In this document: one piece after another, positions 24,221 through 47,556 of the stretch
Layout: every line of letters begins with the position of its first letter
Position numbering within the stretch: the first letter of the stretch is position 1
From: Octopus vulgaris
Taxonomy: Eukaryota
Direction: 5' to 3'
Assembly (NCBI GenBank): GCA_951406725.2
Contig: OX597828.1
Coordinates: 52,948,001-53,012,000, forward strand
Length of the DNA stretch: 64,000 nucleotides
Notes under the pieces: model-generated
The model's input: the letters and a program-made list of their open reading frames with translations, nothing else
Databases searched by the model: none
What the model was told of the DNA's origin: nothing
Position numbers and translations under genes: made by a program

Positions 24221-24263
<43 letters not shown>

Positions 24264-24344
24264 GGTCCCGGGTTGAGTCGGGGTTAACCACAGTAAATAA
24301 GGTACTCAATACATAGCAGAGTAAATTAATTTATTTTATAGAAG

Positions 24345-24397
24345 GAGCTTCTACAGGACTAGAACTGTTTCATTCAAAAGAAATCATCAGGAAGCTC
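24345..24397 (-). ncRNA. Type I hammerhead ribozyme motif within ~200 bp element 24261-24465
   Basis: Minus strand GAGCTTC-CTGATGA-TTTCTTTTGAAT-GAA-ACAG-TTCTAGTC-CTGT-A-GAAGCTC: 7-bp stem I, canonical core, 4-bp stem III, GUA cleavage triplet; stem II is 3 bp with a U-U mismatch at its base. Confidence 0.75.
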
Positions 24398-24488
24398 ATC
24401 AGCTTCCTGATGATTTCTTTTGAATGAAACAGTTCTAGAACTCCTTCTATAAAATAAAATTAAAATATATTTATAAATATAAAAATTA

Positions 24489-25108: not shown

Positions 25109-25135
25109 TACTACACACATACGGTCTTGTAGTAG

Positions 25136-25369
25136 AAGGCGGAGAGCTGGCAGAAACGTTAGCACGCCGGGCGAAATGCGTAGCCGTATTTCGTCTGGCG
25201 TTACGTTCTGGGTTCAAATTCCGCCGAGGTCGACTTTGCCTTTCATCCTTTCGGGGTCGATAAATTAAGTACCAGTTACGCACTGGGGGTCGATGTAATC
25301 GGCTTAATCCGTTTGTCTGTCCTTGTTTGTCCCTTCTGTGTTTAGCCCCTTGTGGGTAGTAAAGAAATA
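25136..25369 (+). mobile_element. SINE family A (tail i) with 13-bp TSD
   Basis: GGTCTTGTAGTAG at 25123-25135 and 25370-25382. Confidence 0.92.
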
Positions 25370-25375
25370 GGTCTT

Positions 25376-25444
<69 letters not shown>

Positions 25445-25849
25445 ATAGTAGTAGTAGTAGTAGTAGTTGTTGTTAGCGCGTTTTATATACCTAAATCGTG
25501 CTCATGGTCTTCTTTCCGTTTGTCGTTGTTGTTGTTGTTGATGAGTGCGACGGTGCTTTAATTGTTTTTAATTGTATTTTATTCTGTATATTATGAAATG
25601 CATCTTTTGCTTTATGGTGCTTTTTTTTGTCTGTTTGTTTTTTTTTGTGGTTTTTGCTGTCGTTGTTGGAAGATGCGTACATTTTGCGTGTGTCAGGGCT
25701 TGTTTTTTTTTTTTTTTGCTTGTATATTTTTGAATGAACTATTTCGTGTTCATGTGTGCGCATGTGTGTGTATGTGTGTGTGTGTGTGCACAAATATTAA
25801 CTTTGTTTCCAACATACTCATGTATACATGAATACACATACCTATATAT

Positions 25850-45629: not shown

Positions 45630-45992
45630 CCCACTCCGTGACACCTTGGGCAAGTATCTTCCAATATAGCCTCGGGCCGACCAAAGCCTTGTGAGTGAAT
45701 TTGGTCAACGGAAACTGAAAGAAGCTCGTCATATATATATATATATATAAGCTCGTCATATATATATATAAATATATATAATGTATTTGAGTGTCTGTGT
45801 TTGTTCCCCCACCATCGCTTGACAACCGGTGCTGGTGTTTACCTCCCCGTAACATAGCGGTTCGGCAAAAGAGACCGATAGAATAAGTACTAGGTTTACA
45901 AAGAATAAGTCCTGGGGTAGATTTATTCGACTAAAAGGCAGTGTTCCAGCGTGGCCGCAGTCAAATGACTGAAACAAGTAAAAGAGTAAAAA
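45630..45992 (+). mobile_element. SINE family B, head truncated
   Basis: Matches family B. Confidence 0.9.
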
Positions 45993-46217
45993 CGAATATC
46001 CGTACATATTTATCAATATCTATATATATATATCCATCTATCTGTCTCTCTGTCTACCTATCTATCTATCTCTAAACACACACACTTTCATACATATATG
46101 TGTGTGTGAACTTGTTTGTGTGTATGTATATATATGTATGTATATTATATGTAGGTCCCGGGTTGAGTCGGGGTTAACCACAGTAAATAAGGTACTCAAT
46201 ACATAGCACAGTAAATA

Positions 46218-46302
46218 ATTTATTTTATAGAAGGAGCTTCTACAGGACTAGAACTGTTTCATTCAAATGAAATCATCAGGAAGCTCCTTCTATAAAATAA
46301 AT
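46218..46302 (-). ncRNA. Type I hammerhead ribozyme motif closed by a perfect 23-bp stem I (element 46151-46302)
   Basis: Arms 46218-46240 and 46280-46302 are exact reverse complements; between them the minus strand reads CTGATGA-TTTCATTTGAAT-GAA-ACAG-TTCTAGTC-CTGT-A. Confidence 0.75.
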
Positions 46303-46565: not shown

Positions 46566-46945
46566 ATGTATAAATATATATATAGAATATGTATAATCGT
46601 ATAATCGGCATATAGTTAAAGTGATTTCTTTTTTTTAAGTCTCTTCTATTATTTGTTGCGTGGCGCTTCTTAAATGCAGGCATAAAACTCTCGGCCCTTG
46701 AGTCCTGTTTTTAATTCTCAACCGATCAAAATAAAATGATTTCCGATTTAAACCGATGACGTTCTGTTTTGAGGAGTGAGACTGAGTCGAAGCCATCGAC
46801 CGCACTTATGTTAGCGTTCTGGGAAGGATTAAATGCTAAGTTAGCCCCGACGAGATTAGATCTCAGGACAGATTTCGTCAGAACAATTAGCACAAAACAA
46901 ATTTTCCGACGCTCTGACGAGTTTGTCAATATACCAACTGGAATG

Positions 46946-47556
46946 AAGGCGACGAGCTGGCAGAACCGTTAGCACGCAGGGTGAAATGCGTATCGGTATT
47001 TCGCCTGCCGTTCCGTTCTGAGTTCAAATTCCGCCGAGGTCGACTTTGCCTTTCATCCTTTCGGGGTCGATAAATTAAGTAACAGTTACGCACTGGGGTC
47101 GATGTAATCGACTTAATCCCTTTGTCTGTCCTTGTCTGTCTCCTCTATGTTTAGCCCCTTGTGGGTAATAAAGAAATAGAAATAGGTATTTCGCCTGCCG
47201 TTACGTTCTGAGTTCAAATTCCGCCGAGGTCTACTTTGCCTTTCAACCTTTCGGGGTCGATAAATTAAGTAACAGTTACGCACTGGAGTCGATGTAATCG
47301 ACTTAATCCCTTTGTCTGTCCCCTCTATGCTTAGCCCCTTGTGGGCAATAAAGAAATAAGTAACGTTAGCACGCCGGGCGAAATGCTTAGCAGCATTTTG
47401 TCTGTCTTTATGTTCTGAGTTCAAATTCTGCCGAGGTCGACTTTGCCTTTCATCCTTTCGGGGTCGATAAATTAAGTACCAGTTGCGTACTGGGGTCGAT
47501 CTAATCGACTGGCCCCCTTCCCCAAAATTTAGGGCCTTGTACCTAGATTAGAAAAG
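46946..47556 (+). mobile_element. Trimeric family A SINE composite inside one 18-bp TSD
   Basis: AATATACCAACTGGAATG at 46928-46945 and 47557-47574; three core units between them. Confidence 0.92.

Follow-up and report, generated by a model that had tools for sequence, protein, structure and literature searches.

How did a short repeat copy come to run up to stem I of a putative hammerhead ribozyme and then continue as an inverted copy of itself? The question is raised by the sequence at 46151 in a 64,000-nt stretch of the Octopus vulgaris genome (contig OX597828.1, positions 52,948,001 to 53,012,000; hereafter the window), for which an earlier note had proposed that the ribozyme stem both defines the variable end of the repeat and primes self-templated synthesis during integration. 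We identify this sequence, which lies in a TA repeat, as an inverted stub, 152 bp long, from a Hydra-clade Penelope-like retrotransposon (PLE), consisting of the first 136 nt of the element RNA followed by an inverted 23 nt (Table 1). Positions in the element are numbered from its fixed end (ref 1 = 46151), which puts the short end at ref 69, predicted cleavage after ref 91 and the 5' arm of stem I at ref 131-136.

Table 1. Features of the window copy and of its partner insertion (positions of the window)
Feature	Position	Strand	Remarks
Arm read as tail-primed: 5'-terminal 136 nt (ref 1-136) of a Hydra-clade PLE	46151..46285	-	94% match to the pLTR of the ORF-bearing locus L138
RNA sense of the element	46151..46285	-	
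"Tail" between two fixed start points: long end 46151, short end 46218	46151..46217	-	short end at ref 68-72 in 51/51
Type I hammerhead motif, predicted	46235..46285	-	cleavage predicted 46241/46240
Inferred transcription start / capped 5' end, first A of stem I	46285	-	
Tail-less inverted arm (ref 69-91)	46280..46302	+	joined via 6-bp stem-I complementarity (46280-46285)
Second insertion, same family	24261..24463		tail arm 24261-24396, 4-nt insert, tail-less inverted arm 24401-~24463

The 23 perfect base pairs described for this copy were confirmed as the inverted repeat 46218-46240/46280-46302. The near-identity to the copy at 24261 held as well, the two sharing orientation and starting base and being 97.8% identical over 136 columns (2 substitutions and one 1-nt gap). 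Both had been said to share sequence through GAAGCTC and then to continue as inverted copies of themselves; the continuation is real, but the final C is absent from the parent elements, which have A, T or G at that place (ref 137), and native stem I comprises only 6 bp (AGCUUC/GAAGCU). Past the common part, the 24261 copy reads GAAGCT, 4 nt and then an inverted copy with a 9-nt deletion spanning the cleavage site (window 24430-24445). The two copies did not arise by segmental duplication, since their 2-kb flanks have only dispersed repeats in common, at 71-92% identity and none adjoining the element; one such repeat lies ~650 nt to the right of each copy, and the DNA between gives no alignment. 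Dispersed SINE-like repeats are abundant around both (window 45640-46000, 46900-47400 and 25135-25500). The picture of a recent family with one fixed end is upheld.

A 33-nt core of the element has 1,909 exact matches in the 2.8-Gb genome and a 28-nt tail motif has 2,048, both of them lower bounds given by exact matching, as each pattern misses some subfamilies. The family and its short-end/TA boundary are present in independent contigs too, by a search that misses known common variants. The tail leads into coding sequence at 59 places, and among the 20 of these coding regions that were fetched, L138 carries an intact 713-aa ORF with RT and GIY-YIG (L138:772-2913) between direct pLTRs, whose long end runs on as ATAT in the parent element, matching the TA target. 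Compared by eye with the Hydra-clade definition, this ORF has YRDD and LVY...SYIG motifs, DKT for DKG, a CxCX5C linker, and CxxC and CxH flanking E and N, with no CCHH; RWK reads RWR. A Pfam scan of it gave no true match, the single sub-threshold match, to VtrA_C, being taken as chance, and its atlas neighbours at 0.96-0.99 bear RVT_1, GIY-YIG or HTH_animal. TA-repeat targets, pLTRs, an inverted truncated arm and a one-sided tail are all present in the family. Such targets, arms and tails are known for PLEs, as are hammerheads in the pLTR, and the accessible text on the Hydra-clade C-terminal EN+ PLEs, e.g. Hydra-1_Obim (Craig et al. 2021, PMC8557442), describes the same single RT + GIY-YIG ORF, the same DKT, CxCX5C linker and CxxC/CxH round E and N without CCHH, and the same combination of pLTR hammerhead, (TA)n target, inverted 5'-truncated arm and tail at one end. 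The element type itself is ordinary. Placed by these motifs, the element would be a new family of a known clade, set apart by eye from Hydra-1_Obim in both protein and hammerhead (PMC8557442, as far as accessible).

Two dimensions set it apart from the clade as described in the available part of that source: a tail of ~68 nt versus 30-40, and a unit that, counted between pLTRs, is ~4.8 kb long in L138 and 5.6-7.2 kb at four more loci, above the <3 kb typical of the Hydra clade, which is itself a general tendency (PMC8557442). The unit exceeds 3 kb because simple repeats fill the 3' UTR, and this UTR (L031-L035, L138) consists of 2-4 kb of TA/CA microsatellite-rich sequence that varies among copies. 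At L032 and L035 the insertions are multi-kb, with a tail-less ORF-bearing arm and a short inverted arm that carries the tail. Seven ORF copies (L133, L136, L137, L141, L143, L147, L149) are frame-broken at the same C6 run, where one more base is needed; the assembly carries signs of long-read errors within repeats, and the common break is likely a long-read homopolymer error, with a shared lesion as the alternative.

The minus strand of the window copy carries a predicted type I hammerhead core, with CUGAUGA at 46279-46273, GAAA at 46260-46257 and GUA^ between 46241 and 46240, and the cleavage position that the earlier note had given on that strand was placed correctly relative to it. The full core is there (CUGANGA, GAAA and UH, with three helices), subfamilies varying at N7, loop II and loop III. 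It is built of a 6-bp stem I, CUGAUGA, a weak stem II, GAAA and a 4-bp stem III; stem II has a U-U at 10.1/11.1 plus 3 bp, the closing pair G10.1-C11.1 being absent. In Rfam the motif had no match at gathering score and no hammerhead family at E<=10, and its isolated fold is unremarkable (z -0.43).

Plotted against the hammerhead, the breakpoints of the family are strongly non-random and pile up at the 5' edge of stem I. Our tail-anchored sample used 75 of the first 76 tail matches on contig C1, less one duplicate, giving 74 loci that comprised 51 inverted insertions, 12 without an inverted arm in view and 11 running beyond ref 255. The inverted arm started at ref 68-72 in every inverted insertion (51/51). 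Among arms reaching ref 128, 36 of 52 with the tail and 36 of 38 without it end within ref 128-137, and the end density over the 74 arms is 0.084/nt there, vs 0.0036 beyond and 0.0032 at ref 40-85. Partial-tandem joints occur at the same stop too (L036, L135, L140, L142). The idea that the ribozyme stem defines the variable end survives in part: stem I is where the arm ends cluster, although the 5' end of the RNA accounts for the stop better than a structure does. Against such a stop stand the 11 of 74 tail arms that extend far past this wall, so templates of greater length are used as well.

Priming by the stem fared worse. In the fullest form of that hypothesis, one cDNA stops at stem I, folds back and copies itself, after which one of the two arms loses its tail through endonuclease cutting at the AT-rich short-end site. 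Self-priming has been proposed from palindromic PLE junctions (PMC3846280, accessible part) and endonuclease resolution has been proposed for the tail (PMC8557442, likewise); with the added cut, tails on either arm are accounted for, and the geometry of the window copy permits it. The exact window-type stem-I joint is, however, a rare class, found 29 times genome-wide, one other joint type being found 303 times. In 23 of these 29, all of which were examined, the 68-nt tail sits on the inverted continuation and the ribozyme arm has no tail, so that the continuation was not copied from the ribozyme arm, and folding back without the added cut fails; the remaining 6, the window copy among them, have the opposite layout. 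In the commoner joint type the tail is on the continuing arm in 9 of 15. Each insertion has one tail, on either arm, and the tail arm is >=15 nt shorter than its partner in 8 of the 51 inverted insertions. Zero-loop palindromes make up 8 of the 51, and several joints (L151, L154, L156, L160, L161, L163) have an extra C on both arms with 1-2 nt between; neither zero-loop, nor 1-2-nt-loop, nor both-arm extra-C joints can be primed within one molecule. L096, L112 and L130 are joined through stem II complementarity, and therefore any self-complementary patch serves. Moreover, the accessible account of the anole Poseidon enzyme in vitro has both target strands extended and two internal start sites delimiting the tail (PMC11167929), so that the tail there reflects two starts. 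We infer that two independently primed cDNAs were joined by microhomology. Self-templated synthesis, disfavoured by the tail on the continuation and by the zero-loop palindromes, is unlikely for the family even with the cut added, and it may still hold for the window copy alone, where the geometry is compatible, as it is in 6/29 stem-I joints.

Recurrence of some joints (303 and 29 exact copies) could also mean that the palindromic stub propagates itself as a non-autonomous element, with complete copies made from a single master or a few of them. The same joint is nevertheless found in several subfamilies, with the tail on either arm, which largely refutes this reading; joints are also very diverse, and we regard such masters as very improbable.

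For two cDNAs, the stop at stem I calls for an explanation of its own, and the base that follows it bears on the matter. We chose 215 informative joints without parental and direct-inversion sequence, and a hand count of the first 100 gave C 77, G 16, T 4 and A 3. Twenty C loci that were fetched were all true joints and none parental, several of them with the extra base on both arms. Of the G rows, 13 of 16 read GAA, and 11 of those, in CUGAAGA subfamilies, fit microhomology. The C is rarer after ends at the cleavage site (ref 91; 7/29) than at ref 137 (Fisher p 3e-7), as expected if it derives from the cap. Against this, C can be added by some reverse transcriptases whatever the template end. 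In accessible text, the untemplated G at full-length L1/SVA 5' ends has been attributed to the cap (PMC3287187). Also against the cap, CAG is the reading in 60 of the 77 C joints, and re-copying of the RNA's own 5' sequence can produce it; with these joints set aside C is still ahead, though on small numbers (17 vs A 1 and T 3). At L159 and L152 the first 9 nt of the RNA were seemingly copied two or three times, the extra C ending each round; these joints appear to reflect telomerase-like realignment and re-copying of the RNA 5' end.

Upstream of the stop, parent elements have a TATA box 29 nt before the inferred start, and the TATA-to-stem spacer is 22 nt in 20/20 matches from 13 hand-picked loci whose spacer sequences are divergent. 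Two points speak against a start driven by this TATA box. Upstream conservation forms a block of ~50 nt, wider than the TATA box alone, and Penelope of D. virilis, which resembles the present family in having its promoter and hammerhead in the pLTR and a landmark at the 5' boundary of helix I, relies on an internal promoter that lacks a TATA box and has an intron whose end falls at helix I, whereas here the TATA box lies upstream and the start would lie at helix I (Schostak 2008, PMC2377424; Cervera 2014, PMC4209133; accessible parts). That intron (PMC4209133) would fit another explanation, in which priming is again twin but the ref-136 end comes from RNA processing, either by 5'-3' decay that halts at stem I or by splicing to a 3' splice site in the AG of stem I, and the C is added by terminal transferase. 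The 15 nt upstream are indeed pyrimidine-rich and end in YAG, and such processing would partly rescue the notion that the stem defines the end. However, a spliced exon upstream of ref 136 common to the joints was looked for among 50 of them and none was found, nor does any match the element's strong GAG|GT donor; the C is rare after cleavage-site ends, and the fixed TATA spacing is left unexplained. By consensus, exon ends would predict G or T, not C, on the cDNA. We consider processing about as improbable as folding back with a cut. The stop at ref 136 likely represents the capped 5' end of the RNA.

A second, smaller pile-up marks the cleavage site, which is also where the inner end of the tail-less arm of the window copy lies. 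Arms leave the parent exactly after ref 91 in 70 cases, whereas the control positions ref 97 and ref 94 have 5 and 10 such exits. This excess suggests in-vivo cutting by the motif, affecting a minor fraction of the templates. Several points weigh against it: 29 of the 70 exits are stem-I joints, explicable by microhomology, 12 resemble 1-nt deletions, leaving 29, and the G10.1-C11.1 pair is missing from stem II. From the 41 non-joint matches at ref 91, 20 loci were fetched; 15 end at the site, 2 of them being variant stem-I joints, and the other 5 continue across it, leaving a scar of 1-2 nt. Both arms end at the site in L216 and L220. Just 3' of the site lies a small-deletion hotspot (ref 88-91), with a gap at ref 88 in 13 of 147 arms, mostly in one arm. 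As the seven ORF copies with the same C6 frame break caution, the deletions at ref 88-89 may be long-read errors, and they were kept out of the evidence.

The interpretation that we favour as probable is that two cDNAs are primed at two fixed internal sites of the RNA, run off its capped 5' end and are joined head-to-head. It builds on the parent element with its ORF, the two fixed outer ends, the pile-up at ref 128-137, the tail on either arm, the untemplated C and the smaller pile-up at ref 91. The element's enzyme would prime one cDNA per target strand, and head-to-head joining would follow once both had run off the capped 5' end, which would coincide with the hammerhead's first base. In the window copy, 6 bp of pairing between the end of the long cDNA and the stem-I complement carried by the second cDNA would have given only the appearance of a fold-back. 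Since the priming sites sit in the 5' leader of the mRNA, priming at them would give the short abortive stubs that make up most copies. More tentatively, and with rather less confidence than in the twin cDNAs themselves, it can be hypothesized that the hammerhead is transcribed first, with Pol II starting on its first base, so that a cut at +45, ahead of the ORF and of both priming sites, would take the cap off the element's own mRNA. The telomerase-related enzyme would copy the leader to the cap two times over, giving the equivalent of paired strong-stop DNAs, and would at times realign and re-copy the 5' end (as in L159 and L152). Cleavage of hammerheads in the 5' UTR enables cap-independent translation in RNA viruses, a possible parallel (PMC13725137, accessible part).

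How the inverted ends of PLEs form and what the hammerhead does are stated as open questions in the accessible text of PMC8557442. In the openly accessible literature covered, neither twin priming in PLEs nor a cap or transcription start at their hammerhead was found to be reported, nor were arm ends at its cleavage site. The proposal makes single-base predictions: transcription would start, with a cap, on the base that opens stem I, cleavage would fall 45 nt further downstream, and the two priming sites would be separated by 68 nt. If it is true, thousands of stubs are a base-resolution record of the cap, of ribozyme cleavage in vivo and of the formation of inverted and tandem PLE ends.

The closest experimental system is Poseidon PAc of the green anole (Frangieh et al. 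2024, PMC11167929), which has two internal starts delimiting the tail, extension of both strands and an AT-rich target, as we would have it for the present family. According to the accessible part of that report, the Poseidon ORF starts inside the hammerhead, the start sites lack homology to the target and RNA ends were not found at the cleavage site, whereas in the present family the hammerhead is part of the 5' leader, each of the two start sites resembles TA and arms accumulate at the cleavage site. The animal non-LTR retrozymes (Li et al., bioRxiv 10.64898/2026.07.22.740005, as accessible) likewise have a type I hammerhead from PLE pLTRs, but the window copy is a monomer, an inverted stub of an autonomous element without the tandem hammerhead units that define a non-LTR retrozyme. 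Local duplication of whole insertions, joint included, is seen at L166, L111 and L187. The family does have one array, at L131 (G000:C8:91474500-91484300), of ~29 tandem units, mostly 271 bp and with one inversion; each unit contains a TATA box, hammerhead, tail and ORF start, and the array resembles a newborn retrozyme of the window-copy family.
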